From assembly GCA_002923335.1 (NCBI GenBank), contig BEHZ01000001.1, positions 1 to 34,979 on the forward strand: a DNA stretch of 34,979 bases. Direction: 5' to 3'. Every line of letters begins with the position of its first letter. The first letter of the stretch is position 1. The notes below the pieces were generated by a model, which did not search any database, was not told the origin of the DNA, and saw only the letters and a program-made list of their open reading frames with translations. Shown one piece after another: positions 2,754 to 33,885 of this stretch. Position numbers and translations under genes: made by a program. This stretch comes from a bacterium HR23. Its GTDB lineage: Bacteria > Chloroflexota > Dehalococcoidia > Lucifugimonadales > HRBIN23.

Positions 2754-2755
2754 CG

Positions 2756-14000: not shown

Positions 14001-14594
14001 GAGCCGTTCTTCACCACCAAAGGCCCCCGGGGCACCGGCCTGGGCCTGGCCGTCTCCTACAGCATCGTGAAGCGCTATGGGGGCGACATCACCGTGGAGT
14101 CCGCGGTGGGGAAAGGCTCCACTTTCACCGTCCGCCTCCCCATCGCCCCGTCCCCGCGGGAAAAAGAGACGCCCAAAGGCGAGAGCATCCCCGCCGGGCG
14201 CAGTCTGCGCCTGCTGGTGGTGGAGGACGACCCCGCCGTGGCCGACCTGCTGGAGGACATGCTCCACACCCTCGGCCACCACCCCCAGGTCTTCCGGGAC
14301 CCCACCCAGGCCCTGGAGGCCATCGGCTCCGGCGAGTGGGATGCGGTGCTCACCGACCTGGCCATGCCCGGCGTCAGCGGTTGGGAGGTGGCCCAACACA
14401 GCAAGAAGGTCCGCCCCATGGTGCCCGTGCTCCTCCTCACCGGCTACGGGGACCACATTGACCCCCAGCAGGCCCGTGCCCACGGCGTAGACGGCATTCT
14501 GGGCAAACCCGTTTCGGCCAGGGACATGGCGATCGCCCTGCAGGCGTTAGTTGAGGGGGGGGGGGTGAGAGTATTCCGCCAGAAACTCGGCTAA
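11031..14594 (+). CDS. Hybrid sensor histidine kinase: four GAF-like modules, PAS, HisKA, HATPase_c, C-terminal receiver
   Basis: H-box MAAGVAHDFNNFL, N-box INLILNAIDAM, G-boxes DTGIGI and GTGLGLA, receiver LRLLVVEDDP...LTDLAMPGVSG...LLLTGY. The N-terminal half consists of repeated ~166-aa GAF-like units, each ending in ALERE. Confidence 0.85.
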   Translation: MTAPGLDDLLASGGAERLLRAIAEVAFVNLSRLPSPAVMERLAGIVGEGLGARAVVVRRYDPHRQVLEAVASWGIPLADLPYPALPVQREERLYSVNTVAVVYTADLQDDPIAHTVRERLGIETTLAVPLRTADTYLGTLRLHFRERRTFTPEETALVQAVGDRLALALHHLEALEREQGARRQAEALLAIARAGLANAPLEEILQGLASAIRQALRADSTVIRLWDEESQGLVLGASDPHEFPGWGRPSVILPMESFSGRVFTENRTLILADIHSDPTAHPRFPPQFRSTMGTPLPGEERPVGVIHVEWKEPHTPTPQEQVILEMAASLAAQAVRKTQALEREQGARRQAEALLAIARAGLANAPLQDILQGLSRAIYAALGADRVVIRLWNEEEQSLDLAAFTPALLSHLLRPRHRSGEKTFSLRVFQERRTIALPDIESDPVAQATFHPSLVSTLGTPIPDVEKPLGVIHADWTTRHVPTPAEQALLEMAAGLAGQAILRARALEREESARRWAEALADVLERATRPGPLPQVLQGILEGMAHYWDAPGGIIRLVDRDANCLNAVACIGYRLEDLAPQPVDGSGGGFSHRIFTTGATGVFGYSELVQAGSFIPRFGYRQMLGAVLRVRGEAVGVIHLDWKEERIFTPQDIERFTLMVGLASQAVERAWLYEETSRQAQALQESNRALRFQAVILGQVQDAICATDRDGKVRYWGPGAEALLGVPAPSAQGKPLYALLGYTAEEWAECVRRVEQGEIPATRSVRYAHPQGKALWLDLAISPWYGEGGGLDGFIVVGRDVTRVRQMEVQMLQLEKMRALGQMAAGVAHDFNNFLAVIMGQAELALMDRTLSPRLQQALEAIRRASVDGAQVVRRLATLARLRAEGQPEPVDAQKVCRDALESTRFAWEERSARQGIAIHLDLDLQEVPPLACTESELREVLINLILNAIDAMPQGGTLGLACFQDGGQVCIAVKDTGIGISPQVRQHLFEPFFTTKGPRGTGLGLAVSYSIVKRYGGDITVESAVGKGSTFTVRLPIAPSPREKETPKGESIPAGRSLRLLVVEDDPAVADLLEDMLHTLGHHPQVFRDPTQALEAIGSGEWDAVLTDLAMPGVSGWEVAQHSKKVRPMVPVLLLTGYGDHIDPQQARAHGVDGILGKPVSARDMAIALQALVEGGGVRVFRQKLG
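11549..11633 (+). repeat. 85-nt intragenic direct repeat, copy 1 (encodes ALEREQGARRQAEALLAIARAGLANAPL)
   Basis: Aligned by eye to 12047-12131, with 84 of 85 bases identical. Confidence 0.9.
12047..12131 (+). repeat. 85-nt intragenic direct repeat, copy 2; a degenerate third copy starts at 12545
   Basis: It starts exactly 498 nt after copy 1. A third, diverged copy (ALEREESARRWAEAL) starts exactly 498 nt further on. Confidence 0.9.
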
Positions 14595-18761: not shown

Positions 18762-20003
18762 CTACCGTGGAGTGCCCACCCGCCCAAAGAAGCGGATGGC
18801 CTTGCGGAGGGCGTCAATGAGGGCGTCTACCTCTTCCTCGGTGTTGTAGAGGTAGAAACTGGCACGGGCGGTGGCCACCACCCCTAGGGAGCGCACCAGG
18901 GGCATAGCGCAATGGTGCCCGGCACGGATGGCGATGCCCTCCCGGTCCAGGAAGGTGCCCAGGTCGTGGGGGTGGATGTCGGGGTGGTGGAAGGAGATAA
19001 CCCCGCCCCTCTGCTCCGCCCGGGGGGGGCCAAAGACCTGCACCTCCTCCAACTCGGCGAAGCGTTGGAGGGCGTAGCGGGTGAGGGCGATTTCGTGCTG
19101 GCGGATGGCGGACATGCCGATGGCCTTCAGGTAGTCAATGGCCACCCCGAAGGCGATGGCGTCGGCGATGTTGGGCGTGCCCGCCTCATAGCGGAAGGGA
19201 GGAGCCTTCCAGGTGGCCCGCTCATAGGTAACCTCCCGCACCATCTCCCCACCCATCAGGAAGGGCTCCATCTCCTCCAGCAGGGGGAGTTTGCCGTAGA
19301 GCACCCCGATGCCCGTTGGCCCCAGCATCTTGTGGGCCGAGAAGGCCAGGAAGTCGCAGTCCAGGGCCTGCACATCCACCGGCATATGGGGGACGCTCTG
19401 GGCGCCGTCCACCAGCACCAGAGCACCCACGCCGTGGGCCAGGCGCACCACCTCCTCCACCGGCACGATGCTCCCCAGCACATTAGACATATGGGTGATG
19501 GCGACCAGGCGCACCCGTGGCGAAAGCAAACGCCGGAAGGCGTCCATATCCAGGAGGCCCTCCGGCGTAAGGGGGGCGATGCGTAGGGTCGCACCCGTTT
19601 CGGCACAGACCCTCTGCCAGGGCACCAGGTTAGAGTGGTGCTCCATAGCGCTGGTGAGCACCTCCTCCCCAGGTTTCAAGTGGTGGCGCGCCCAGGCGGA
19701 GGCCACCAGGTTGATGGCCTCGGTGGTGTTGCGGGTCCAGATAATGCACTCCAGGGAAGGTGCGTTGATGAAGTCCGCTACCTTCTGGCGTGCCTCTTCG
19801 TAGCGCTGGGTGGCCTCCTCCCCCAGGGTGTGCACCGCACGGTGCACATTGGCGTTGTAGCCCTCGTAATACGCCACCAGGGCCTGGATGACCTGGCGCG
19901 GCTTCTGGGAGGTGGCAGCGTTGTCTAGGTAGACCAGGGGCTTGCCGTGCACCTTGCGCTGGAGCACGGGGAAGTCTTGGCGGATGGTGTGGACATCCAG
20001 CAT
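18762..20003 (-). CDS. sufS: Cysteine desulfurase SufS
   Basis: 413 aa with FPVL...VYLDNAATSQKP, the PLP lysine region FSAHKMLGPTGIG, and the active-site loop RAGHHCAMP. Confidence 0.9.
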   Translation of the reverse strand: MLDVHTIRQDFPVLQRKVHGKPLVYLDNAATSQKPRQVIQALVAYYEGYNANVHRAVHTLGEEATQRYEEARQKVADFINAPSLECIIWTRNTTEAINLVASAWARHHLKPGEEVLTSAMEHHSNLVPWQRVCAETGATLRIAPLTPEGLLDMDAFRRLLSPRVRLVAITHMSNVLGSIVPVEEVVRLAHGVGALVLVDGAQSVPHMPVDVQALDCDFLAFSAHKMLGPTGIGVLYGKLPLLEEMEPFLMGGEMVREVTYERATWKAPPFRYEAGTPNIADAIAFGVAIDYLKAIGMSAIRQHEIALTRYALQRFAELEEVQVFGPPRAEQRGGVISFHHPDIHPHDLGTFLDREGIAIRAGHHCAMPLVRSLGVVATARASFYLYNTEEEVDALIDALRKAIRFFGRVGTPR

Positions 20004-20011
20004 GTTGCCCC

Positions 20012-20329
20012 CTAGTCGGGAAGGGCTACCTCTATCTTATCCCCCTGGATGCGGGTCTTGAAGGTCTGGATGGGGCGCACGGCGGGAAGGGCCAGCACCG
20101 CCCCGGTGCGCACATCAAACCGTGCCCCGTGGCGGGGGCATTCTATCGCATAGCCGAAGAGCACCCCCTCCCCCAGGGGGCCACCGTCGTGGGTGCAGAG
20201 GTTCTGGACGGCGAAGAACTGCCCATCCACATTGCATACCGCCAGGGACCTCCCCCCCGCCTGCACCACCCGGGCGGTGCCAGGGGGGATATCACGAGGG
20301 GAGGCGACGGCTATCCACCGCTCGGCCAT
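20012..20329 (-). CDS. Rieske [2Fe-2S] ferredoxin-like protein embedded in the suf operon
   Basis: Rieske ligand motifs CTHDGGPL and CPRHGARF; 105 aa. Confidence 0.85.
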   Translation of the reverse strand: MAERWIAVASPRDIPPGTARVVQAGGRSLAVCNVDGQFFAVQNLCTHDGGPLGEGVLFGYAIECPRHGARFDVRTGAVLALPAVRPIQTFKTRIQGDKIEVALPD

Positions 20330-20332
20330 AGG

Positions 20333-21679
20333 CTACCCTCCCTTGGAGGCGTCGGGAGTCTGCATCTTCCGGTGGATAAAGGCCCAAATGCGCTCCCTCA
20401 GCCAGGGGGTAGGAATGCGCTGGGCCAGGGGGTCAAAGAAGCCCTCCACCAGAATGCGCCTGGCCTCTGGCAAGGGGATGCCCCGGCTCTGGAGGTAGAA
20501 GAGGTGCTCCTCATCCACAGGGCCGACGCTGGCAGCGTGGGAGCACCGCAGGTCGTCCGCCTCTATCTCCAGGACGGGGATGGAGTCGGCCTTGGGGCGC
20601 CCCCCCAGCAGGAGGTTCTTGTTGGTCTGGAAGGCGTCGGTCTTCACCGCCCCCCGGCGCACCTTCACCGTGCCGTAGTAAACGGCACGGGCAGTATCCT
20701 TCAGGGCGGATTTGTAAAGTAAGTCGCTGGTGGTGGAGGGGGAGTGATGGTCCTGCAGGGTTACCTGGTCAAAGACCTGTTCCCCGTCTCCGAAGAGGAC
20801 CCCCAGGAGGTCGGACCTGCTCCCCTGGCCCTCCAGGTGGTTCTCCAGCACCGTCTTCACGAACCGGCTCCCGAAGTGAATCTGGTAGGTGAGCAGGGAA
20901 GCATCCCGCCCCAGGATGCGACTGCGCTGGAAGGAGAGGAAGAGGGCCTGGGGGCCGAGGCACTGGACACCCGTGTAGCGCACCTGGGAGGCGCTGTCCA
21001 GCAGGAGTTCCACCACGGGGAGCGCCAGAGCCGGCCCCTCCCCCTCCTGCCAGTAGTCCTCCACGATGGTGGCCGACGCCCCCTCCTCAGCCACGATGAG
21101 GGTGTGGGGGAAGAGGGCCCCCTGGGGTCGGGCGAGGATGTGGAGGAGGTGGATGGGCCGTTCCACCTGGGCGTTGCGGGGCAGGTAGATGAACACCCCC
21201 CCATTGCGGAAGGCGGACGCCATAGCGGTGAAGCGGTTCTCGGTGGGGGCAATGGCCTTGCCGAGGTAGGTCTGCACCAGGGAGGGGCGCTGGCGCAGGG
21301 CCTCCTCCAGGGGCATCACCACCACCCCCGCCCTCTCCACTGCCGGGGAGAGGAGATGGCGAAGGGTGTGCCCCTCGGCCTGCACCAATAGGGCATCATA
21401 CTCTTTGCCGGGGCGCAGGAGGGTGCGGGCGGTGCCCAGGGTGCGCCGACGGGGGGCGTCCCCGTCGGGCTGGAAGGCTTCGTAGGGCAAGGAGGCCACA
21501 TCGGTCCGACGCCACCACTCGTGGGAAGGAGGCGGGAAGGGGGTCTGCTGGTATGCGTGGAAAGCGTCTAAACGGGCGTGAAGCGCCCAGCCCGGCTCTC
21601 CCCAGCGGGCAGACAGCCGTCGCACCGCCTCTTCGGTGAGGCGGGAGAGAGGGCGCTGGGTAAGGGCGACATCGCTCAT
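20333..21679 (-). CDS. sufD: Fe-S cluster assembly protein SufD
   Basis: 448 aa and SufB/D-fold (e.g. FQTNKNLLL...ADSIPVLEIEADDLRCSHAASVGPVDEE.LFYLQSRGI). It sits immediately downstream of sufB. Confidence 0.85.
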   Translation of the reverse strand: MSDVALTQRPLSRLTEEAVRRLSARWGEPGWALHARLDAFHAYQQTPFPPPSHEWWRRTDVASLPYEAFQPDGDAPRRRTLGTARTLLRPGKEYDALLVQAEGHTLRHLLSPAVERAGVVVMPLEEALRQRPSLVQTYLGKAIAPTENRFTAMASAFRNGGVFIYLPRNAQVERPIHLLHILARPQGALFPHTLIVAEEGASATIVEDYWQEGEGPALALPVVELLLDSASQVRYTGVQCLGPQALFLSFQRSRILGRDASLLTYQIHFGSRFVKTVLENHLEGQGSRSDLLGVLFGDGEQVFDQVTLQDHHSPSTTSDLLYKSALKDTARAVYYGTVKVRRGAVKTDAFQTNKNLLLGGRPKADSIPVLEIEADDLRCSHAASVGPVDEEHLFYLQSRGIPLPEARRILVEGFFDPLAQRIPTPWLRERIWAFIHRKMQTPDASKGG

Positions 21680-21709
21680 AACGGGTGTGCTCCTGTGAGG
21701 AATGAAGGG

Positions 21710-23113
21710 TTAGCCGACCGCCCCTGAGAGTTGCAGTTCAATGAGGCGGTTCATCTCCACGGCGTATTCCATGGGCAGGGTTTTGGTAAACGGCTCAATG
21801 AAGCCGTTGACCACCATGGCCATGGCCTCCGTCTCGGTGAGGCCACGGCTCATGAGGTAGAAGAGTTGTTCCTCGCTGATCTTGGCCACCACCGCCTCGT
21901 GGCCGATGGACACATCCTCCTCCGCCACCTCAATGTAGGGATAGGTGTCGGAGCGGGAGTAGGGGTCCAGGATGAGGGCATCGCACCGCACCATAGACTT
22001 GGCGCCCTTGGCCCCCTCGTAAATCTTCAGGAGGCCCCGGTAGGAGGTGCGCCCCCCGCCCTTGGAGATAGACTTGCTGAGGATGGTAGAGGAGGTGTAG
22101 GGGGCCACATGGATGGCCTTGCCCCCGGCGTCCTGGTGCTGGCCGGTGTTGGCGAAGGCAACGGAAAGGATATCCCCCCGTGCCCCCTTGCCCATCAGGA
22201 AGACGGAGGGGTATTTCATGGTAACTTTGGAGCCCAGGTTGGCGTCTATCCACTCCACCACCGCCTCTTCGTAGGCCACCGCGCGCTTGGTAACCAGGTT
22301 ATAAACATTGAGGGACCAGTTCTGGATGGTGGTGTAGCGCAGGCGTGCCCCCCGCATGGAGATGAGTTCCACCACCGCGCTGTGAAGGGAGTCTTTGGAG
22401 TAGACGGGGGCGGTGCACCCCTCCACATAGTGGACGAAGGAGCCCTCGTCGGCGATGATGAGGGTGCGCTCAAACTGCCCCATGGCCTCGGCGTTGATAC
22501 GGAAGTAGGCCTGGAGGGGGATCTCCACCCGCACCCCGGGGGGCACATAGATGAAGGAGCCTCCGCTCCACACGGCGCTGTTGAGGGCGGCGAACTTGTT
22601 GTCGGCGGGGGGGATAACGGTGCCGAAGAAACGACGCACCAGGTCGGGATACTCCCGCACCGCCGTGTCGGTATCCACGAAGATAACGCCCTTCTTCTTC
22701 AGGTCCTCCCGGAGGGAGTGGTAGACCACCTCGGATTCATACTGGGCACCTACCCCGGCCAGGAACTTGCGCTCCGCCTCGGGGATACCCAGTCGGTCAA
22801 AGGTCTTCTTGATGTAGTCGGGGACCTCGTCCCAGGAGTGCCCCTGGCGCTCTGTGGGCTTCACATAGTAGTGGATCTCGTCGAAGTTGATGGCGGAGAG
22901 GTCGGCCCCCCAGGTGGGCATGGGCTTCTGGAAGAAGACCTCCAGGGCACGGAGGCGGAAGTCCCGCATCCACTGGGGCTCCCCCTTCATATCGGAGATC
23001 TCCTCCACCACCCGGCGGGAGAGGCCGGGCTTGGCCTTGTAGACATACAGTTCGGGGTCCCGGAAGCCGTATTTATAAGGGCCGAGGTCAATCTGTGGGC
23101 GTGCGGTGGTCAT
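21710..23113 (-). CDS. sufB: Fe-S cluster assembly protein SufB
   Basis: 467 aa from ATG 23113 (SD AGGAG upstream), starting [17 protein letters not shown]... and containing [14 protein letters not shown] and [31 protein letters not shown]. The track's 88-codon upstream extension overlaps sufC and is rejected. Confidence 0.9.
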
Positions 23114-23126
23114 GGCTCTCTCCTTT

Positions 23127-23891
23127 CTATGCCTGGGAGCGCACCTGCTGAAGGACCTGTTCGTAGCCCCGTGCCTCCAGTTCCTCGGCCAGTTCGGGGC
23201 CGCCGGAGCGGACGATGCGCCCCTCCGCCAGGATGTGCACGAAACGGGGGCGCACATAGCGCAGGATGCGCTGGTAGTGGGTGATGAGCAGGATGGCGTT
23301 GGCCGGGGAGGCGAAGGCGTTGATGCCCTCGGCCACCACCCGGAGAGCGTCAATATCCAGACCCGAATCCGTTTCATCCAGCACGGCGACGGTCGGCTGG
23401 AGGACGGTGAGTTGCAGGATCTCGGCCCGCTTCTTCTCGCCCCCCGAGAAGCCCTCGTTCACATAGCGCTGGAGGAAGGACTCGTCCATCTTCAGCAGGT
23501 TGGCCTGTTCCCGAATGCGCCGGCGGAACTGGACCACAGGGAGGTCCTGGCCACGAAGGGCCCGGCCGGCCGTGCGCAGGAGGTTGAACAAGGTAACCCC
23601 CGGCACCGCCACAGGATACTGGAAGGCCAGGAAGAGGCCTTTGCGTGCCCGTTCATCGGCGGTTGCCGAGGTGATGTCCTCCCCCTTCAGAAGGATGCGC
23701 CCCTGGGTAACCTGATACTTGGGGTGGCCCATAATGGCGTAGGCCAGGGTGCTCTTGCCGGAGCCGTTGGGCCCCATGAGGGCGTGCACCTCGCCGGGGT
23801 AAAGGGCCAGGGAAACGCCCCTGAGAATCTCCTTGCCTTCCACCGCCACATGGAGGTCTTCTATCTGCAGGAGGGGAGACAGAGTGGTCAT
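23127..23891 (-). CDS. sufC: SufC ABC-type ATPase
   Basis: Walker [13 protein letters not shown] signature FSGGEKKR, Walker [13 protein letters not shown]. Confidence 0.9.
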
Positions 23892-25954: not shown

Positions 25955-26560
25955 TTAGGGCAAGGGGATAGGGCTGTCAAGCGGGGCGCTGTTCTTCCGG
26001 GCAGGGGTTGCCCCTGTCCGCCTTCGGGCGAAGGCCAGGGGCTTCAGGGGCTTAGGGACGCCGTTCTCCGGACGCACCAGGCTCTTGGTCAGCCACACAT
26101 GGCTGGTGGGCCGACGGAACCCGTTCTTTCGGAAGAAGGCCAGGGCCTTGGCGTTGTCCCCCTCGGTGTCTACGATGAGCATTCGCACCCCCTCCTCCTT
26201 CATCCGCTTCTCAAACTCGTGGAGGAGGCGTTGGGCGACGCCCAAGCCCTGGAACTCCTCCTTGACCCCCAGCCACGCCAGGTAGCCGTAGCGCCAAGAG
26301 GAGCCCTCTTTCTCCACCGTGCTCCCTAGGGCAAACCCCACGATGTTCCCCCTGCCGTCCTCGGCCACCAGGCAGAACTCCGGGTCGGTGGTGAAGGCGG
26401 AGGTTACCTCGTAGGGGTCCCAGGTGCGGTAAAGGGCAGGAAGAGCGGTGCGGGTGAAGAGGCTTTCCCCCAGATGGTAAACAGGTGCCAGGTCATCTAT
26501 CTCCATCTCACGGATGGAGATGCGCGGCCGGGATAAGTTGTCCTCTCGTCTTGAGGGCAT
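25955..26560 (-). CDS. GNAT family N-acetyltransferase
   Basis: Acetyl-CoA binding pattern LGVKEEFQGLGVAQRLLHEFEKRM plus NAKALAFFRKNGF. Confidence 0.8.
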   Translation of the reverse strand: MPSRREDNLSRPRISIREMEIDDLAPVYHLGESLFTRTALPALYRTWDPYEVTSAFTTDPEFCLVAEDGRGNIVGFALGSTVEKEGSSWRYGYLAWLGVKEEFQGLGVAQRLLHEFEKRMKEEGVRMLIVDTEGDNAKALAFFRKNGFRRPTSHVWLTKSLVRPENGVPKPLKPLAFARRRTGATPARKNSAPLDSPIPLP

Positions 26561-26614
26561 AGGTTATAAGGGTTTCCCTCCTATGGGCGCGTTCGCAGTG
26601 GTGCCCACAGCCTA

Positions 26615-26623
26615 ATTATACCA
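26615..26623 (-). promoter_or_regulatory. Candidate extended -10 promoter TGGTATAAT upstream of the GNAT gene
   Basis: The minus strand reads GGTGTGGTATAAT about 55 nt upstream of the GNAT ATG. It shares the GTGTGGTAT core with the site upstream of ttuB. Confidence 0.4.
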
Positions 26624-26628
26624 CACCA

Positions 26629-26644
26629 GCGCCCCATAGGGCGC
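26629..26644 (-). terminator. Hairpin GCGCCC-N4-GGGCGC, 4 nt after the last gene of the copper operon
   Basis: Perfect 6-bp GC stem with a 4-nt loop, read directly. The U-tract is weak. Confidence 0.4.
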
Positions 26645-26647
26645 CTA

Positions 26648-27160
26648 CTACCTGGCGGTTCCCCAGCGGAGGATGCGCTCTGGCACACCCGCCAGGCCTT
26701 TGATGACCAGGGCCAGTTCGCCACGCCCCGTAAGGCCCTTCTCCCCAGGATAGGCAAAGACGAGAACGCCCTCCCGATGGTGTGCAGACTCCTGGAGAGG
26801 CACCCACGCCGTGGACGGAAGCCTCCCCTGGGTATCCCATTGAAGGGCGCTCAGGGCGACCAGGTTATACCGACCCAGGTCAACGCTGTGGGTGTCCACC
26901 TTCACGTGAAAGAGCAGGTATTCCCCCAAGGGGAACTTCTCCAGGGCCGGCTTGCCCATTGCCCGCAGGTGTTCGGGGGTAACCAGCGTCGCCTCGACGG
27001 TAACACCGCCCTGGGCCCTATCGGTTCGGGTCAGCAGGGCAGTATCCCCCTCTGCGGGCGTGGCAGGGGTGAACAAACCAGGGGTTGGTGTCGCCTTGCG
27101 TTGGAAGGCACAGCCCCCGACAACGAGCAGGAGGAAGACTACCGGCAGGAGACGCCCCAA
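26648..27160 (-). CDS. Hypothetical lipoprotein (last gene of the copper locus)
   Basis: Signal peptide with lipobox LLVVGGC, then a roughly 150-aa soluble domain with VKVDTHSVDL and ESAHHREG. It has a TTG start with no well-spaced SD, 14 nt after the upstream stop. Confidence 0.5.
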   Translation of the reverse strand: MGRLLPVVFLLLVVGGCAFQRKATPTPGLFTPATPAEGDTALLTRTDRAQGGVTVEATLVTPEHLRAMGKPALEKFPLGEYLLFHVKVDTHSVDLGRYNLVALSALQWDTQGRLPSTAWVPLQESAHHREGVLVFAYPGEKGLTGRGELALVIKGLAGVPERILRWGTAR

Positions 27161-27174
27161 GGGTAGGAACGTAT

Positions 27175-27726
27175 CTACCCCTCCTTGGGGAGGGGCCTGG
27201 CGGCCACCCTGTCAGAGACCGGCAGGTGCCGTCGCCCCTGATGCACCAGGCGGAGCATGAGAACCACCCCTATAATGTTTACAGCGATGCCTGCCACCAT
27301 AAGGGGGACACGAAACTGGTTCAAAAAAATGGCGGCCCCCGAGAGGCCCATCAGGGGGAGCACATCTGTAATATGGTGGGCACAGCATGCCACCATAGCC
27401 ACCGACGAGGTCCCCGTGCCTGTGGCGGCCGCCGCCGTAGGGGCGTGGAGGGGCTTGGCACGGGGAATGCCCAGGCGCAGGTAGGTGTAGAGGCCTATCT
27501 GGACGCCAAAACCGGTGGCGATCGCAGCCACGAAATACCAGTCCTGCCCCAGGAGAGTCAAGGCGTGGCGCAGGCCCTGGGCCCACGAAACGACACCTAT
27601 GTAAAGGAGGATGAGGAGGCCAGCACTGGCCACGCCCGAAGAAAACCCCAGAAGGAGCCTGCGACGGCTCACCTTTGTTTGTAGCGCGTTGGCCGCCTCG
27701 TTGTGGCATACCATTCGCCGTTCCAT
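27175..27726 (-). CDS. Four-TM membrane protein with an intramembrane CCAHH motif
   Basis: 183 aa with an ATG start. The N-terminus contains SRRRLLLGFSSGVASAG, and predicted TM3 contains VAMVACCAHHITDVLP. No family name was recognised. Confidence 0.5.
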   Translation of the reverse strand: MERRMVCHNEAANALQTKVSRRRLLLGFSSGVASAGLLILLYIGVVSWAQGLRHALTLLGQDWYFVAAIATGFGVQIGLYTYLRLGIPRAKPLHAPTAAAATGTGTSSVAMVACCAHHITDVLPLMGLSGAAIFLNQFRVPLMVAGIAVNIIGVVLMLRLVHQGRRHLPVSDRVAARPLPKEG

Positions 27727-27783
27727 CCGACCCCCTTCTGACGCAATGGTATTGCGCTGTCAACACCCTAACGGTGAAGAAAA

Positions 27784-28605
27784 CTACACAGTTGCCAGAA
27801 TAGCCAGGCCTAGAGCCACCACGCCGGCCCCCAGGCCCAATCGCACCCGCTCCCTGTAGTGCAAGTTCCAGTGGGCCAAACGGTTCAAAACAGGACGGGC
27901 CGATGCGGCTACCAGGAGAGCCACTAGGGGAATCACAAAGACAACATTATAGAGCACCAAATATAGGTAAGCGAGAACAAAACTCTGCTGAAGCGCTAGC
28001 ATACTCAGGATAGCCAGATACACAGCGCCACTACACGGCACGGTGCAGAGGCCTACCAGGACACCCAGTCCCAACATAGACATCAGGGATGCACGCCTCC
28101 CCCACCGTTGCACAAGGTTCCCTACCGAGCGGGGTGCGCCAAGCCTGGGACCCCACCCCGGCATGAAGAAGTCTTTCATCATCCATAGCCCCAGAAAGAC
28201 GGCCACTAGCGCCCCCAGTCGGGCCCCTAGATGGTTCTGCGTCAAGGCGGTAGAAACCCGCATAAGCCCTGCCCCTATGCTCAGATAGGTGGCAAAGATG
28301 GCCAGGATAAAGGCACCACCGTAGAGGAAGAGCCTGTCCCGCATAGCCCCCGTCCCACCCACCCCCCCATACAGGGAGGCAACAGTCGCCACAAAAAGGA
28401 GGAGCACCGTGAAGGCGCAGGGGTTGAGGCCGTCCAGCAGCCCTGCCAGCGCTACCGTCGGCAGGGCAACAGGAGCAGAAGACAGCGGCGTTGAAAAGGC
28501 AGAGGTGAAACGGGCCTGGGTCTTCCACCCCCAGGATGCCAGCCCGATCGCCAGCACCAGCACGAAAGGGATGGCTACCCCTACAAGCAAGCGACCGTTG
28601 CGCAC
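27784..28605 (-). CDS. DsbD_2 / CcdA-like thiol-disulfide (or metal) transmembrane protein
   Basis: Polytopic, with two membrane-embedded Cys motifs, LDGLNPCAF and CTVPCSGAVY. GTG at 28605 lies 2 nt after the cupredoxin stop; the start is uncertain and the track begins at 28674. Confidence 0.6.
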   Translation of the reverse strand: MRNGRLLVGVAIPFVLVLAIGLASWGWKTQARFTSAFSTPLSSAPVALPTVALAGLLDGLNPCAFTVLLLFVATVASLYGGVGGTGAMRDRLFLYGGAFILAIFATYLSIGAGLMRVSTALTQNHLGARLGALVAVFLGLWMMKDFFMPGWGPRLGAPRSVGNLVQRWGRRASLMSMLGLGVLVGLCTVPCSGAVYLAILSMLALQQSFVLAYLYLVLYNVVFVIPLVALLVAASARPVLNRLAHWNLHYRERVRLGLGAGVVALGLAILATV

Positions 28606-28607
28606 AC

Positions 28608-29084
28608 CTACCCCCGAACTACGAGGACACCCTGCATAAAGGGGCTCTCCCGCCCGCCACAGCACACATCGCAATAGAACACAAAGGCCCCCGCCTGGGA
28701 AGGTGTAAAGGTGAAGTTTTGTGCCGTGAGGGGAGGGACCTTGATATTGATCCCCAACTCGTCCACCGCGAACTGGTGCCAGCCACCTCCATCGGTATGA
28801 AACTGGTTGTCTTTGTTGACCAGACGCAAGGTCACCGGTTCCCCAGCCCGCACCTCGACGAGCGAGGGGCTAAATCCCCCCATGCTCAGCGAGACTGTTA
28901 CCGTGCCCGGTGCCCCTCGTCCCACCGGCTCGAGGGCTCGCCACAAGAAAAAGGTTGCGGTGGCCAGGATGGCCAGCGTTATCCCTCCAAAGAGCACGAA
29001 GCGCCCCCCTCTTCCCGGCGCCCCGGTGCTTCCTTTCTTCCCCTCGTTTCGCCCTGGCAGGTGCAGTGCAGACCGTAGTGCCAT
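28608..29084 (-). CDS. Membrane-anchored cupredoxin-like domain protein with a Cys-rich C-terminal site
   Basis: ATG at 29084 with AAGGAGG upstream. It has one TM segment and then the beta-sandwich pattern F.PS.VEVRAGEPVTLRLVNKD...H.F.VDELG....V.P....FTFTP...G.F.FYCDVCCGG....M.G.LVV. Confidence 0.65.
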   Translation of the reverse strand: MALRSALHLPGRNEGKKGSTGAPGRGGRFVLFGGITLAILATATFFLWRALEPVGRGAPGTVTVSLSMGGFSPSLVEVRAGEPVTLRLVNKDNQFHTDGGGWHQFAVDELGINIKVPPLTAQNFTFTPSQAGAFVFYCDVCCGGRESPFMQGVLVVRG

Positions 29085-29143
29085 GCCTCTACCCCTCCTT
29101 TGCCCTGCCGGAGGGAGCACACACCCCGGCCCGGGACGGCCTG

Positions 29144-29341
29144 CTAGTGGTGCCCCATAGGCTGGGGACCACCCTTCAGGTATTTCTCGGGGTCCTTTTG
29201 GAAGGAGACCCTGCACCCAGGACTGCAGAAGTAGTAGGTCTTCCCCTGGTAGTCGTAGGTGGCCGCCGCCTTCTTGGGGTCCACCTGCATCCCGCAGACG
29301 GGGTCAACCTCCATCGCCTTCCTGCGCAGGAAGAACGCCAT
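29144..29341 (-). CDS. YHS (TRASH-like) domain metal-binding protein
   Basis: 65 aa containing DPVCGMQV...YYFCSPGC...F..DPEKY and ending in MGHH. SD GGAAGGAGGTGCC directly upstream of the ATG. Confidence 0.8.
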   Translation of the reverse strand: MAFFLRRKAMEVDPVCGMQVDPKKAAATYDYQGKTYYFCSPGCRVSFQKDPEKYLKGGPQPMGHH

Positions 29342-29406
29342 GGCACCTCCTTCCTCTGGCTACCGGGGGGACGTGCCCCCTCGGATAGAGACCGGGTGGT
29401 GGGCGG

Positions 29407-29637
29407 TTAAAAGCCCATCATTCGGCCGTGCATGCCGTCCATCATGCTGTGAGACCCCATCATAGCCAGGCACTGCTCGTGCCCCTGCATCATTTGCACG
29501 CAGGCCTCGTGGCCGGCGGGCTGGCGCAGGCGGGACGCCCACGCTGTAGAGACCGCTCTCCCACCCCACAGGCTCCCCGCCAGAAAGGCGAGGCCCAGCA
29601 GGGCGAGAACAGCCAGCACCAGAAGAGAGCGCTTCAT
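29407..29637 (-). CDS. Secreted Met/His/Cys-rich small protein (putative periplasmic Cu(I) binder)
   Basis: Signal peptide MKRSLLVLAVLALLGLAFLAG, then GHEACVQMMQGHEQCLAMMGSHSMMDGMHGRMMGF. SD GGAAGGAGGTGCC, and the ATG overlaps the upstream TGA. Confidence 0.65.
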   Translation of the reverse strand: MKRSLLVLAVLALLGLAFLAGSLWGGRAVSTAWASRLRQPAGHEACVQMMQGHEQCLAMMGSHSMMDGMHGRMMGF

Positions 29638-29879
29638 AGGGCACCTCCTTCCTTACTGTTGCCCTGGGGAGGGGTGCGCTGGCGAAGCCCCCTCACCCGG
29701 GGGATGACCACCGGCATCAGGATGATGGTGGTGAGCAGGAAGACCCACCCCGCCCCTATGGACCGGCTGGCCCAGGAGGCCTCTCCCTTCCCGGTGGCCA
29801 GGCCGATGAAGGTCAGAGCGGCCGCCAGGGCCAGGCCGAGGTAGATGCAGGCGCCGAGGATTGCAGGGGAAAGGCGCAT
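29634..29879 (-). CDS. Small two-TM hypothetical membrane protein
   Basis: 81 aa with ATG 5 nt after the copA stop and GGGAGG 9 nt upstream. Two hydrophobic segments, and its stop overlaps the next start. No family was recognised. Confidence 0.45.
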   Translation of the reverse strand: MRLSPAILGACIYLGLALAAALTFIGLATGKGEASWASRSIGAGWVFLLTTIILMPVVIPRVRGLRQRTPPQGNSKEGGAL

Positions 29880-29884
29880 GCCCC

Positions 29885-32455
29885 TTACCTCCCGGCGGGG
29901 ACGGGGGCGGGCGCCTCGGGGCGCACCGCCACCGCACCGCCCTTGTAGCGTCGGCGCACCGGGGGCACAAACCCCCGCATGCGTTGGGTGTTCAGGGTAA
30001 CGGAGAGGGAACTGGTGGCCATCAACAGGGCAGCCAGTTCGGGGCTGACCACCTGGCCCAGGAAGGGGTAGAGCAGGCCCATGGCCAGGGGGATGGCCAG
30101 GGTGTTGTAGGCGAAGGCCCAGAAGAGGTTCTGCTTCACCAGGCGCATGGTGGCCCGTGCCACCTGCAGGGCGGAGACCACATCCAGGGGGTCATCCCGC
30201 ACCAGGATGATGTGGCCCGTCTCCTTGGCCACATCGGTGCCGGCGCCCATGGCTATCCCCACATCCGCCTGGGCCAGGGCGGGGGCGTCGTTGATGCCGT
30301 CCCCCACCATAGCCACCCGGTAGCCCTGCTCCTGCAGGCGCTGGATTTCCCGTGCCTTGTCGCCGGGGAGCACCTCGGCCAGCACCCGCTGGATGCCCAG
30401 TTTCTGGGCAATAGCCTGGGCGGTCCGGCGGTTGTCGCCCGTGAGCATGGCCACCTGGATACCCATGCGCTGGAGTTCCCGCACCGCCAGGGGAGCGGTC
30501 TCCCGCAAGGTATCCGCCACAGCGATGACCCCCACCGCCTTCCCATCCACCGCCAGGAACATCACCGTCTTTCCCTCCCCTTCCAGGCGCTCGGCATCGG
30601 CCAGTAAGGGGTCGCAGGCGATGCCCCGCTCGTGCAGGAGCCGGCGGTTGCCCAGGAGGACGACGCGCCCCTCTATACGAGCCTCCACCCCTCGGCCGGG
30701 GAGAGCCTGGAAACCTTCGGGGTCGGGCAGGGCGAGGCCCCTCTCCTGGGCACGGCGCACGATGGCCTCCCCCAGGGGGTGCTCGGAGCGCCGTTCCGCC
30801 GACCCCGCCAGGCGGAGGGCCTCCGCTTCGGCGATTCCGTGGGTTACCACATCGGTAACCTCCGGCACCCCCTTGGTGAGGGTGCCCGTCTTGTCAAACA
30901 CGACCACCTGCACCTTGGTGGCCGACTCCACCGCATCGCCCCCCTTGAAGAGGACGCCGAACTCGGCCCCTTTGCCGGTGCCGGCCATAATGGCAGCCGG
31001 GGTGGCCAACCCTACGGCGCAGGGGCAGGAGATGACCAGCACGGCGATGGAGACCAGCACCGCGAACCCCACGGCGCTGGCCGAGGCCAGGGTGTAGGGG
31101 GTGAGCATCAGACGGCTGGCGGGGGTGAACCACAGGTCGTAGCCGATGAAATACCAGAAGAGGAAGGTGGCCAGGGCCAGGACATGCACCCAGAAGATAA
31201 ACTGCCCCGCCACCGCATCGGCCAGGCGCTGGAGGGGGGGCTTGGAGGTCTGGGCTTCCTCCACCAGGCGGATGATCTGGGCCAGGGCGGTCTCCCGCCC
31301 CACACGGGTCGCCCGGAAGGTGAAGGCGCCTGTCCTGTTCAGGGTGCCCCCTATCACCTCGTCCCCCGGCCTCTTCTCCACCGGGATGCTCTCGCCGGTG
31401 AGCATGGACTGGTCTACTGCCGAGTAGCCCTCCACCACCACGCCGTCCACCGGCACCTGCTCCCCGGGGCGCACCACCAGCAGGTCGCCCGCCTCCACCT
31501 CCTCCACCGGCACCTCCACCTCCTGGCCGTTGCGGAGCACACGGGCACGGCGGGGCTGAAGGCGCATCAGCCGTCGGATGGCCTCGGAGGCACGCCCACG
31601 GGTAACCGCCTCCAGATAGCGCCCCAGGAGGATGAACCAGGTGAGGAGCGCGGCCGCCTCGTAGAAGGTCGCCATGCGCCCCCCGAAGCCGGCCTCGGGC
31701 CAGAAGGTATTGATAACGGCGATGAGATAGGCTGCGCCGATGCCCGTAGCGTAGAGGAGGTTCATATCGGTAACGCCGTGGCGCAGGCCGTTGAAGGAGT
31801 TGACGAAGAACTGCCGTCCCGGGCCCAGCACCATGGGCGTGGTCAGCAGGAAGAGGACCACTTTGTTATGCAGGACCTCGGGGATGATGCGGGAGAGGCC
31901 CCAGTAGGGCTGGAAGGTGCCCAGCATCACCGCCAGGGCCAGGGGGGTGGCCAGGAGGAGGTTCAGCCTCTGCCGACGCATCTCCTTCTGACGGGCCTCC
32001 CGCTCCCGGTCCACCAGGGGCGCCTCCTCCTCGGGGGCAACGGAAAGGCCCAGGGCCTCCAGGGTCTGCCGGAGGTCGGCCAGGGGGGTGAGGTCGGGGG
32101 CGAACTCCACCTGCACCCGCCCCCCCGAGGCGTGCACCTTCACCTGGGCGACGCCGGGGAGGGCCAGCAGGGCCGGGACGATGCGCCCCTCCTCCTGGGG
32201 CGAGAGGGGGTGGGGCAGGCGAAAGCGGGCGGTCTCCAGCACCACCCCGTAGCCTATCTCCTCCACCGCCTGCCTCATGCTGCGGATGCTGGCGGTGGCG
32301 GGGTCGTATTCCAGATAGGCACGGTTGGTGGCCAGGTTGACGGTAACCCGTGCCACACCCGGGACGCCCTGCAGGGCCTCGGTTACGTGGGCGACGCACG
32401 AGGCACAGGTCATCCCCTGGATGGGCAAGGTAGCCTTGCGGTAGGTTCTCGCCAT
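29885..32455 (-). CDS. copA: Copper-translocating P1B-type ATPase
   Basis: N-terminal HMA domain with GMTCASC and a second HMA-like domain lacking CxxC. TM CPC motif ([11 protein letters not shown]), phosphorylation site DKTGTLT, and hinge GDGINDAP. Confidence 0.9.
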
Positions 32456-32464
32456 CCTGTCCCC

Positions 32465-32734
32465 CTAGGAGCGGTTGGCCAGGGCGTAAATCTCCGACAG
32501 TTCCCTGAGCACCTGCTGGGTGCGGTCGCCCCGAATCCCCTCCACCACACAGGTCTTGAGGTGGCCGTCCAGGATGACCTGCTCAATCTTGTCCAGCGCC
32601 CGCTGGACGGCGAAGACCTGTTTGAGAACATCCACGCAGTAGGCGTCCTGCTCCACCATACGGCGCACGCCCTCCAGGTGCCCCTGAACGGACGCCAGCC
32701 GCTTGAGCACCTCCTCCCGCACTTCGGCCAGCAT
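32465..32734 (-). CDS. csoR: CsoR-family copper-sensing transcriptional repressor
   Basis: 89 aa with RL.S..GHL.GV.RMVE....C.DVL.Q..AV..AL and the C-H-C ligand set (YC...GH..TC). It lies 9 nt upstream of copA. Confidence 0.85.
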   Translation of the reverse strand: MLAEVREEVLKRLASVQGHLEGVRRMVEQDAYCVDVLKQVFAVQRALDKIEQVILDGHLKTCVVEGIRGDRTQQVLRELSEIYALANRS

Positions 32735-32776
32735 GCTGTCCCTCCCCTCCCCCCTGGGTGGGGGTCTTCTGAAATC

Positions 32777-32805
32777 AGAATAGCGCTATCCCCATGGGGT
32801 GTCAA
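32777..32805 (-). promoter_or_regulatory. Promoter of the csoR-copA operon (TTGACA - 17 nt - TATTCT) with an embedded CCCCATGGGG palindrome (candidate CsoR operator)
   Basis: The minus strand reads TTGACA CCCCATGGGGATAGCGC TATTCT. The 10-bp perfect palindrome (32790-32799) directly abuts the -35 hexamer. Confidence 0.55.
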
Positions 32806-32862
32806 GGGGGAGGCACCCCGACAGGGGACAAGGGCGGAAGGCCCCTTCGGGGGAGCGCCGGC

Positions 32863-33885
32863 CTATCCGCCGTATTTCTGGCGGAAGTAGGGGATGATGT
32901 GGAGACCGAAGAGTTCAATGACCCGCAGGGCGTGGTAGTTCTCCATGCCCGGCCACTGGATGCGGAAGAGGAAAAAGTTGGCGCCCAGGCGCTGGTGGTA
33001 GCGCTCTATCTCGGCGATGGCGTCTTCGGGGGTGCCGATGATGAAGCGGTCTCTGGCCAACTCCTCAAAGGGCACCCGGAAGGACTCCTGCCCCGGCAGG
33101 GCACGGTCTTGCCCCCATGCGGCGTAGGCCTGGTATTTCCCCTCCAGGTAGGGGCGGGCGATGCGCCACGCCTCCTCCCGTGTGGGGGCGATGAACAGTT
33201 CCCGGGCCAAGGGGATGTCGGCGGGCGGGGGGTGGCCGGCCTGCTCCCGCTCCTGGCGGTAGAGGTGCATCTGGCGCTCTACGGTGGGGAGGGAGGCGTG
33301 GGGGTTCACAAACCAGGCGTGTCCCAGGCGTGCGGCACGCACAACGGCCCCGTCGTTGTTGGCGGCGATCCAGATGGGCGGATGGGGCTTCTGGAGAGGG
33401 CGCACCGTGCACACCGCCTCCCGCAGGCGGAAGTGCTGGCCCTCAAAGGTTACCCGGGGCTGAGTCCAGAGGCGCTGGACCAGTTCCAGGGCCTCCAGGA
33501 AGCGCCCCACCCGCTGACGGCGCTCCACTCCAAAGGCCTCGTATTCAATCTCCCGATAGCCTAGCCCCACACCGAACACCACCCGCCCCTCGCTGATAAC
33601 ATCCAGGGTGGCCACACTCTCGGCCACCTCCACGGGGTTCAGCATGGAGAGAAGGAGCACCCCCGTTACCAGGCGCATCTCCCCCGCCTCGGCGGAGAGG
33701 CGCGCCAAATAGGGGATGGTCTGGAGGCTCTGATAGGGCGGAGAGAGGAAGTGCTGTCCGCTGGCGATGGCATGGAAGCCGGCGTCCAGGGCCAGGCGCA
33801 CCTGGTGGAGGGCCTCCCGGAAACGGCGCACGGGGGAATCGGTGATGGGGTGCTGGGGGATGGTGTAAAGGCCGAAGCGGAGCAT
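32863..33885 (-). CDS. LLM-class (luciferase-like) flavin/F420-dependent oxidoreductase
   Basis: Contains LRFGLY, EVAESVATLDVISEGRVVFGVGLGYR..E and KPHPPIW. ATG at 33885 lies 5 nt after GGAGG; the track start at 33891 is a GTG abutting the SD. Confidence 0.8.
   Translation of the reverse strand: MLRFGLYTIPQHPITDSPVRRFREALHQVRLALDAGFHAIASGQHFLSPPYQSLQTIPYLARLSAEAGEMRLVTGVLLLSMLNPVEVAESVATLDVISEGRVVFGVGLGYREIEYEAFGVERRQRVGRFLEALELVQRLWTQPRVTFEGQHFRLREAVCTVRPLQKPHPPIWIAANNDGAVVRAARLGHAWFVNPHASLPTVERQMHLYRQEREQAGHPPPADIPLARELFIAPTREEAWRIARPYLEGKYQAYAAWGQDRALPGQESFRVPFEELARDRFIIGTPEDAIAEIERYHQRLGANFFLFRIQWPGMENYHALRVIELFGLHIIPYFRQKYGG

Follow-up and report, generated by a model that had tools for sequence, protein, structure and literature searches.

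A putative copper-stress cluster of nine genes in bacterium HR23 (Chloroflexota): a csoR–copA unit followed by conserved, uncharacterised membrane modules

What is the function of a locus that opens as a csoR–copA unit and then continues into seven further genes, four of which match no family in Pfam or NCBIfam scans? The question is raised by a 34,979-nucleotide (nt) stretch of DNA, referred to here as the window, which comprises positions 1–34,979 of contig BEHZ01000001.1 from bacterium HR23 (Chloroflexota; assembly GCA_002923335.1). Copper handling outside the Proteobacteria, Firmicutes and Actinobacteria is poorly mapped. The list of open reading frames (ORFs) of the window contains nine minus-strand ORFs between 26648 and 32734, which are csoR, copA and the genes called here g3 to g9. 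The family-less genes are g3, g4, g8 and g9. On balance the evidence tips towards a chromosomal copper-stress cluster, consisting of nine packed same-strand genes that would share one promoter and that are drawn from independently conserved modules. The front of this cluster is a textbook csoR–copA unit; the remainder is made up of conserved, uncharacterised modules, of which the g8–g9 pair could be a new class.

The first gene, csoR (32465–32734), encodes an 89-residue copper-sensing repressor that matches PF02583 (Trns_repr_metal; 85.5 bits, cutoff 22.8, E = 3.3e-24). A Cu(I) ligand triad, C33/H58/C62, can be read in the protein with the spacing C-x24-H-x3-C, which is also the spacing of Cys36/His61/Cys65 in the numbering of Mycobacterium tuberculosis CsoR; Y32 precedes C33. 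The second gene, copA (29885–32455), encodes an 856-residue P1B-1 Cu(I)-exporting ATPase, with matches to TIGR01511 (596 bits, cutoff 397, E = 8e-179) and TIGR01525 (652 bits, cutoff 346, E = 7e-196). The motifs CPC, YN and MxxSS are found in transmembrane (TM) helices 6, 7 and 8 respectively, DKTGT is present, and of two HMA domains one, at the N-terminus, has an intact GMTCxxC while the other is degenerate. A C-H-C CsoR, an adjacent P1B-1 CopA and, as candidate operators, GC-rich palindromes in the promoter are shared with the csoR–copZ–copA operons of Bacillus subtilis, Thermus thermophilus and M. tuberculosis (the CsoR/RicR regulons). In contrast to those operons, the cluster in the window lacks a CopZ gene, has a YHS/TRASH protein at the chaperone's place and carries seven extra genes on the same strand, including two family-less conserved pairs.

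The relationship of these extra genes to copper was followed through other genomes. Six-frame ORFs of the best 80 species-level g8 loci were compared using iterated profiles of the window proteins; eight families were profiled, and neighbours were counted within 10 kb of g8. The g8 family occurs widely among Chloroflexota and sporadically in other phyla: with one genome scanned per species, at least 482 genomes, mainly of Chloroflexota, encode a g8 relative, and the other hosts include metagenome-assembled genomes (MAGs) labelled Rubrobacter, Thermincola, Sphingomonadaceae, Lentisphaeria, Spirochaetales, Roizmanbacteria and Methanosarcinales. A word-indexed search returned 321 relatives, all of them hypothetical proteins without Pfam domains and mostly from Chloroflexota MAGs, and an exhaustive profile search places the family in 1021 clusters at 50% identity.

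The closest partner of g8 is g9, which adjoins it on the same strand in 68 of the 80 loci—39 in the order g8 to g9, 27 in the order g9 to g8 and two as one ORF—and lies within 1–5 kb in four more. The linkage persists despite the inversion of gene order, which argues for a functional tie and not merely an inherited operon. Also near g8 are a cupredoxin (41 loci), full-length copA (34), YHS (33), g7 (13), g3 (10) and csoR (5). An earlier note on this DNA had proposed a survey of the distal genes' co-occurrence, reasoning that their presence in genomes without any metal-related neighbour would count against a copper role; the survey finds them copper-linked, with at least one other family of the operon (copA/HMA, cupredoxin, YHS, g7, g3 or csoR) near g8 in 66 of 80 loci, when matches of the copA profile to HMA domains alone are counted. 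In loci L085, L051, L030, L041, L016 and L014, a 10-kb stretch carries six or seven of the eight families on a single strand, in shuffled order. The order in L085 is g6 g7 csoR copA g3 g8 g9, in L041 it is YHS csoR copA g3 g8 g9 YHS, and in L030, from Thermoflexus, it is g8 g3 YHS copA g9 g6 g7, each on one strand. The locus is a mosaic, in which the pairs copA–g3, g6–g7 and g8–g9 are conserved and the nine-gene unit is not.

The pair at the distal end of the cluster consists of g8 (27175–27726), encoding a four-helix membrane protein with a CCAHH motif, and g9 (26648–27160), which has a TTG start and encodes a lipoprotein. In an alignment of 25 g8 relatives, residues C114, C115, H117, H118, D121 and P124 of TM3 are invariant, as are M111 and a G103-T-G motif at the cytoplasmic end of the same helix. 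H54 and D62, in a short outer helix between TM1 and TM2, are likewise invariant, and so are Q76 (TM2), R84, R139, N150 and M157 (TM4). The N-terminus of g8 bears a Cys-His motif, and both termini are predicted to be cytoplasmic because positive charges cluster at both ends. An AlphaFold2 model (predicted local distance difference test score, pLDDT, 79) has helices at residues 20–50, 52–61, 63–86, 95–126, 129–137 and 139–175. A DsbB- or VKOR-like identity for g8 was considered and rejected: its cysteines are intramembrane, and g9 has no conserved cysteine beyond its lipobox.

That lipobox reads MGRLLPVVFLLLVVGGC17; a cysteine is present at this position in most relatives, and g9 is predicted to be lipidated. 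It is followed by a domain of ~110 residues in which H91 and H128 are invariant and H127 nearly so, with the motifs DTHSVDL and GHHR.G. The AlphaFold2 model of g9 is a beta-sandwich with a pLDDT of 83, rising above 90 in the core. Some relatives have Met-rich linkers or inserts. In two of them, P0250 and P0251, the signal sequence is separated from the conserved domain by a Met-rich insert, MMGPQMMGPGHGMMQGMMGQGMG, which is similar to the methionine motifs found in periplasmic proteins of copper resistance. A gene for Lgt lies within ~4.5 kb of g8–g9 in 10 of the 80 loci (for example L013, 11972–12799), an unusual spot for a housekeeping gene; its presence fits g9 as a lipoprotein.

Neither protein could be attached to a known family. 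In Pfam and NCBIfam neither g8 nor g9 has a match at E <= 0.1, and neither has a relative in the PDB by sequence profile; Foldseek comparison of the models with the PDB returned nothing for g8 (best E about 1) and only generic Ig-like matches for g9 (best E = 6e-3), with no significant neighbour. A tblastn search with g8 against a plasmid collection gave no match, nor did a search for the exact g8 sequence in public contigs. Literature on the CCxHH motif, and on YHS proteins as chaperones, yielded no description of the CCxHH family or of its lipoprotein partner.

Domain fusions are more informative about what the pair may do. The count covers the 150 best representatives of clusters in the g8 family, is backed by Pfam checks and excludes overlapping matches. 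CCxHH is kept in 144 of the 150. Ninety representatives consist of g8 alone and 28 are g8–g9 fusions; one more (P0378) has the architecture HMA-HMA-g8-g9. In a further 26, one of which has a split g8 match, an HMA domain precedes g8; two have an HMA domain at the C-terminus, and three have an N-terminal YHS domain. In the two YHS–g8 fusions scanned against Pfam the YHS domain is followed by an HMBD domain. In the g8–g9 fusions of L049 and L055 a fifth hydrophobic helix joins the C-terminus of g8 to the g9 domain, in agreement with a cytoplasmic g8 C-terminus and an outward-facing g9.

The best reading of the pair is that g8–g9 would transfer copper across the membrane without ATP, by means of metal-binding domains on both faces. 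This reading is suggested by the metal-binding modules on both faces together with a ladder of ligands, from soft to hard, through the membrane. The arrangement has formal counterparts. CopC/CopD and the fused YcnJ likewise combine two parts, a beta-sandwich outside the cytoplasm that has histidines as ligands and a small polytopic protein in the membrane, encoded by neighbouring and sometimes fused genes. However, neither g8 nor g9 resembles PF04234 or PF05425 in sequence, and g8 differs in having four helices and an intramembrane CCxHH and in its frequent fusion to cytoplasmic HMA or YHS domains. The mercury transporters MerT, MerF, MerC and MerE, acting with MerP, are alike in having a vicinal Cys pair in a TM helix and in relaying metal between soluble domains on either side; a histidine contributes in MerE (PMC5715351). 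In contrast to these, g8 matches no NCBIfam or Pfam mer model and lies in a copper context, and its HMA domains are cytoplasmic and fused, unlike the periplasmic MerP. An island for mercury or another metal was rejected, as neither merR nor merA is found and the context is one of CsoR, CopA, cupredoxins and multicopper oxidases.

The second conserved pair is formed by g6 (28608–29084; ATG start) and g7 (27784–28605; GTG start). A public protein database also has g7 as a 273-residue protein, which supports the GTG start at 28605. g6 is a cupredoxin, matching Cupredoxin_1 (PF13473) with 51 bits against 27 (E = 1.6e-13); it is predicted from a positive-inside count to be anchored at its N-terminus and to face outward. 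Weak sequence matches are to CuA domains, to 4hcf and to CupA (2mry, E = 0.05). The putative site comprises H96, H103, C138, C141, C142 and M150, all identical in the 14 aligned sequences. Part of it is CuA-like, H103-x34-C138-x3-C142 followed by M150, with C141 and H96 as extra residues. The full CuA ligand set, H-x34-C-x3-C-x3-H-x2-M, is not present: the second His is replaced (E146/S147) and the Met is shifted by one residue. The motifs H-x-DGGG-x-HQ and FYCDxCCGG..NPxM are conserved in 13 aligned homologues encoded next to g7, with one replacement of Asp by Gly (L008).

Proteins of the CcdA/DsbD type are expected to have a six-TM core with a Pro-Cys signature in two TM helices, and g7 shows both features. 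It has seven hydrophobic segments, which correspond to an N-terminal anchor and a six-TM core; N61-P62-C63 in the first core helix and V189-P190-C191 in a later one are invariant or nearly so among 32 relatives. The later helix reads C187-TVP-C191, the extra cysteine giving a CxxxC pattern. Seven of the 32 relatives match DsbD_TM (best E = 6.6e-9), four match DsbD_2 and 14 match SfLAP, and public sources name relatives of g7 CcdA or DsbD; no PDB relative was found by sequence profile. By its predicted architecture g7 is a member of a divergent subfamily of the CcdA/DsbD superfamily and not a threshold-passing DsbD_2 protein. Of the 18 loci that have a g7 relative, 15 have a cupredoxin gene immediately upstream of it, among them the loci of Limnochorda pilosa, an Anaerolineae MAG and an unclassified MAG. 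At two loci (L058, 5755–6984; L061, 11050–12273) one protein joins an exported N-terminal domain, which has the CxxC motif CADCWPY, to a g7-like TM domain. This fusion lies directly downstream of g8–g9, without the usual cupredoxin partner, and is, as read from its domains, a different way of pairing a CcdA-like conduit with a thiol domain.

The simplest explanation of the g6–g7 pair is that g7 would supply the reducing power that keeps the g6 thiols metal-competent under copper-catalysed oxidation. The grounds for this are the constant association of the conduit with a cupredoxin that faces outward and bears three invariant cysteines. In the known pathway, electrons pass from CcdA to TlpA and on to apo-CuA. 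The g6–g7 pair resembles the pathways leading from CcdA/DsbD to TlpA, ResA or ScsC, and to reduction of apo-CuA (CoxB), in the Pro-Cys of two g7 helices and in the pairing of g7 with an exported, Cys-bearing protein of CuA-like fold. It differs in lacking a thioredoxin-like intermediary, in the Cys3/His2/Met site of g6, which has no second CuA His, and in that g7 falls below the Pfam thresholds for DsbD. Nor does the locus belong with Salmonella ScsABCD: g7 has no large periplasmic domain, and no homologue of ScsA, ScsC or ScsD, or other protein of thioredoxin fold, is encoded among the nine genes or in the near flanks. CupA of Streptococcus pneumoniae, a Cu(I) chaperone and the weak match noted above, is also a cupredoxin anchored at its N-terminus, belongs to a cop operon and uses Cys and Met as ligands; g6 differs from it in its predicted outward orientation, in its pairing with a CcdA-like protein and in its ligand set, HxDGGGxH with CxxCC...M. 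No description of a g6–g7 pair was found in literature on cupredoxins with CcdA or DsbD in copper operons; one paper deals with DsbD-family proteins in the copper responses of archaea.

Between these pairs and copA lie three small genes. g3 (29634–29879) encodes an 81-residue protein with two TM helices. Of 11 distinct loci, seven encode a relative of g3 directly 3' of copA and an eighth encodes it with one gene in between; the relatives share the core Y..L.AA..F....G.Y..VAR.GG..WV..L..I..MP.V. From this linkage, g3 is predicted to be an accessory membrane protein of CopA. g4 (29407–29637), which overlaps g3 by 4 nt, encodes a 76-residue Met/His/Cys-rich secreted peptide, whose N-terminus is signal-peptide-like and is followed by HEACVQMMQGHEQCLAMMGSHSMMDGMHGRMMGF. 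A phmmer search detected no g4 homologues; the resemblance to a 78-residue secreted CVAMM..AAMMG protein, encoded next to YHS in L001, is at the level of motifs only (E = 0.039).

g5 (29144–29341) encodes a 65-residue YHS/TRASH protein, matching PF04945 with 69.7 bits against a cutoff of 30.3 (E = 2e-19). Its cysteines, C16-x22-C39-x3-C43, fit the pattern C-x19-22-C-x3-C, and the protein ends in an MGHH tail; since it has no signal peptide it is predicted to be cytoplasmic. The earlier note had remarked on the absence of a CopZ-type chaperone gene, and the 35-kb window indeed contains no stand-alone HMA/CopZ ORF. Relatives include fusions of a YHS domain with CopA (L010), with an ABC ATPase (L003) and with g8 (P0340, P0426), and because of these fusions g5 is likely to be a substitute for CopZ, a candidate for the role of cytoplasmic chaperone.

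From the family identities, conserved residues, gene linkage and fusions we infer a scheme that extends to metal specificity, the direction of transfer, co-transcription, CsoR control and all of the biochemistry. CsoR would sense cytoplasmic Cu(I), and CopA would export it with the assistance of g3, while g5 may handle cytoplasmic copper in place of CopZ. Outside the cell, copper would be bound by the g4 peptide, through its Met, His and Cys residues, and by the anchored cupredoxin g6, through its Cys3/His2/Met variant of the CuA site; g7 would carry reducing equivalents across the membrane, so that the cysteines of g6 are kept reduced under copper-driven thiol oxidation. g8–g9 would pass copper across the membrane without ATP, which is the least certain step. 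The metal could move between a cytoplasmic site, formed by the N-terminal Cys-His motif (or, in relatives, by HMA or YHS domains), and a soft membrane site made up of M111, C114, C115 and M157, and further between the harder outer ligands H117, H118, D121, H54 and D62 and the beta-sandwich lipoprotein g9 with its three histidines. A CsoR-type promoter and an adjacent efflux pump favour transfer in the outward direction, either for detoxification or for the loading of extracytoplasmic copper proteins. The earlier note had proposed an envelope-side module for copper binding and thiol redox; the thiol-redox part fits g6–g7 only, whereas g8–g9, having no conserved extracytoplasmic cysteines, looks more like a metal relay.

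In its layout the cluster could be one transcription unit under the control of CsoR. The gaps from csoR to g9, computed from the ORF coordinates, are 9, 5, -4, 65, 59, 2, 57 and 14 nt, and G-rich Shine-Dalgarno-like sequences precede eight of the nine starts, with strong sites before g5 and g6. The TTG start of g9, 14 nt past the stop of g8, suggests translational coupling of the two. A sigma-70-like promoter, TTGACA-17-TATTCT (32805..32777, minus strand), lies ~40 nt 5' of the csoR ATG, and is the sole such site found by a promoter scan of 26000–33400. Directly 3' of the g9 stop codon is a GC hairpin (26625..26647, minus strand), followed by TGGTATAAT. The hairpin, GGCGCCC-uaug-GGGCGCU, has a 7-bp stem and a 4-nt loop (~26628–26645; centroid energy -13.3 kcal/mol), and TGGTATAAT (26615–26623), 3' of it, is a promoter candidate for the next gene, which encodes a GNAT protein. 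The hairpin is weak evidence for termination, or for the end of the cluster, because it lacks a U tract and its stability does not exceed that of shuffled sequence (z = 0.25); it is not called by the terminator scan. These results bear out what the earlier note had described of the layout: nine minus-strand genes in this order, for which the ORF list gives the same coordinates and exact gaps, a single good promoter upstream of csoR, and a hairpin followed by promoter-like sequence after the last gene.

Two elements near the csoR promoter are candidate CsoR operators. A 10-bp palindrome, CCCCATGGGG (32790–32799), sits in the promoter spacer, and an element with a C tract and a G tract, CCCCCACCCAGGGGGGAGGGG, is found in the csoR 5' leader. 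Both are plausible by resemblance only, being likened to the GC-rich CsoR boxes of the literature. The csoR homologues of the compared loci are internal genes of their clusters, never the first, and offer no operator comparison. A second exact copy of ACCCCATGGGGA, the palindrome of the promoter spacer, occurs at 3336–3347 within a long plus-strand ORF (2657–4138); in a genome so rich in GC this is probably chance. Within the g8 coding sequence (27334–27348, minus strand) there is a hairpin that resembles a terminator and precedes AUUUUUU; it is probably a by-product of coding, as it overlies the codons of a strongly conserved GLSGAAIFLN segment.

Several observations weigh against the proposed scheme, and some of them lend themselves to other explanations. 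The nine-gene order is conserved in none of the 80 loci, and 14 of the loci have no profiled metal gene nearby, many of these being on short contigs. About 0.8 promoter-like sites are expected by chance in a region the size of 26000–33400, so it is the position of the site before csoR that counts; motifs like CCCCATGGGG are not enriched in the window, with 17 found against 12 expected. The GC content of third codon positions (GC3) is 0.70 in g6, 0.68 in g7 and 0.74 in both g8 and g9, as against 0.81–0.89 in the first five genes and 0.82–0.86 in the flanking housekeeping genes, and the overall GC content of the 26–29 kb region dips to 0.61–0.635. In composition the g6–g9 block stands apart, and it may have been added later, with regulation of its own. 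The cluster might in that case be two or more units, with csoR, copA, g3, g4 and the YHS gene as the native CsoR operon and g6–g9 inserted later, transcribed or regulated separately and outside the CsoR regulon. The 59- and 57-nt gaps could hold promoters. The latter (27727–27783) contains, on the minus strand, a perfect TTGACA (27763–27758), 31 nt upstream of the g8 start, and then the inverted repeat GCGCAAT-acc-ATTGCGT; together these could be an internal regulatory site, and the RNA of the gap folds mildly better than shuffled sequences (z = -1.8). Elsewhere, moreover, the modules have two-component regulators near them more often (13 of 80 loci) than csoR (5 of 80). Against such a division, the internal TTGACA has no usable -10 hexamer and the promoter scan calls no internal site; the 65-, 59- and 57-nt gaps contain GC hairpins, none with a U tract, and the terminator scan finds no U-tract terminator in any gap. 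The genes share one strand, short gaps and the strong Shine-Dalgarno sites of g5 and g6, and in L085 and L041 csoR–copA–g3 and g8–g9 also stand on one strand. Separate units are, on this evidence, rather unlikely.

The proposed outward relay is weighed against the same background. It rests on topology, conserved ligands and fusions, and neither g8 nor g9 has a detectable relative of known function. The pair, and perhaps g6–g7 with it, might instead serve copper acquisition or the maturation of cuproenzymes, by import of the kind proposed for CopC/CopD or by the loading of multicopper oxidases and cupredoxins, with resistance as a secondary matter. Multicopper oxidase genes are indeed found near g8, one gene upstream of it in L001 and parted from it by a UbiB-like kinase gene in L006, and a cupredoxin is nearby in about half of the loci, as counted above. 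Importers of the Mer type likewise deliver metal to a cytoplasmic HMA domain, and g8–g9 has no energy-coupling domain; the formal analogy to CopC/CopD and YcnJ points the same way, although homology to CopC/CopD is not detectable. In the window, however, the pair stands with an efflux ATPase behind a CsoR-type promoter, which implies expression in copper excess, and HMA or YHS domains in the cytoplasm are a typical trait of exporters, as Met-rich inserts are of resistance proteins. Acquisition as the main function appears improbable, to about the same degree as separate units. For g7 the question is whether electrons or metal would pass through it. The earlier note had called the protein DsbD_2/CcdA-like, and this has to be narrowed: g7 lies below the gathering thresholds of DsbD_TM (PF02683) and DsbD_2 (PF13386), and its best Pfam match is SfLAP, at 22.8 bits also below the cutoff of 35, which fits a divergent subfamily. 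SfLAP presumably belongs to the same Pfam clan as DsbD, a clan that includes metal transporters as well. g7 could accordingly be a transporter of metal or a small molecule in this LysE/DsbD clan, like NicO, MntP or CadD, whose TM cysteines move Cu(I) to or from g6 with no electron transfer. The CxxxC pattern created by the extra cysteine would suit such a function, and no gene for a thioredoxin-like partner was found in the window. The published discussion of copper binding by ScsB- and DsbD-like proteins (PMC7785015) is also in its favour. Nevertheless, relatives of g7 match DsbD_TM and DsbD_2, the fusion of L058 and L061 to an exported CxxC domain is as in DsbD-type relays, and the partner g6 has three invariant cysteines in need of reduction. 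The six-TM core with Pro-Cys in two helices is that expected of CcdA and DsbD. A transporter is the least probable of these alternatives, and the reading of g7 as a reductive conduit for g6 is retained.

If a copper-stress cluster is the right description, the locus and its relatives provide a specific list of copper-handling parts for Chloroflexota and other groups. We would suggest, tentatively and with the balance still somewhat against it, that g8–g9 represents an unrecognised class of small, ATP-free copper-transfer systems that exists beside the P-type ATPases and spans ~1000 clusters, and that g6–g7 is a further novel module, whose DsbD-type conduit would act directly on a thiolate copper site to keep it reduced. 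The g8–g9 pair offers the hypothesis of a passive or proton-coupled transmembrane copper relay, for which two small proteins, or a single natural fusion, would suffice as test material. The g6–g7 pair suggests a direct tie between DsbD-type reducing power and a copper-thiolate cupredoxin, which bears on the protection and loading of Cys-ligated copper sites under copper stress, and the data on g5 suggest that stand-alone YHS/TRASH proteins can fill the role of CopZ. Should the distal genes be unrelated to copper, what is left is an ordinary csoR–copA operon plus passenger genes.

The setting of the cluster is chromosomal: on one side it is flanked by a gene for a luciferase-like monooxygenase and on the other by GNAT, UbiA, VanZ, PNPOx and SUF genes, and no mobility genes were found among the flanking genes examined. 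An Rfam scan of the window gave no family match. A 752-residue plus-strand ORF (30632–32890), antisense to copA and csoR, was rejected because the periodicity of GC3 backs the minus-strand genes only, and by the same test many other long ORFs that overlap real genes are artefacts of high GC content. Genes for SUF Fe–S assembly (sufB-like, sufD-like and sufS; 18762–23377) lie on the same strand, ~3 kb beyond the copper cluster; Fe–S clusters are a main target of copper toxicity. A hybrid histidine kinase of 1187 residues, with GAF, PAS, HisKA, HATPase and receiver domains, is encoded at 11031–14594, with no evident link to the copper cluster.

Further genes recur near g8 in other genomes. They encode S-adenosylmethionine-dependent methyltransferases, OmpR-type two-component systems, PCYCGC (PF13798), SHOCT, ICMT/PEMT, DUF2933 and MacB/FtsX proteins, besides the Lgt mentioned earlier. 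An unannotated family of ~154 residues, with no Pfam match, is found near g8–g9 in 17 of the 80 loci (for example L081, 11334–11798). A small HesB/IscA-like protein, which has no counterpart in the window, is encoded next to g8–g9 in L001 (7661–7990) and L003 (9154–9468); the L003 copy has an Fe-S_biosyn match, and that of L001, assigned by reading its sequence, ends in HGGGCHH.

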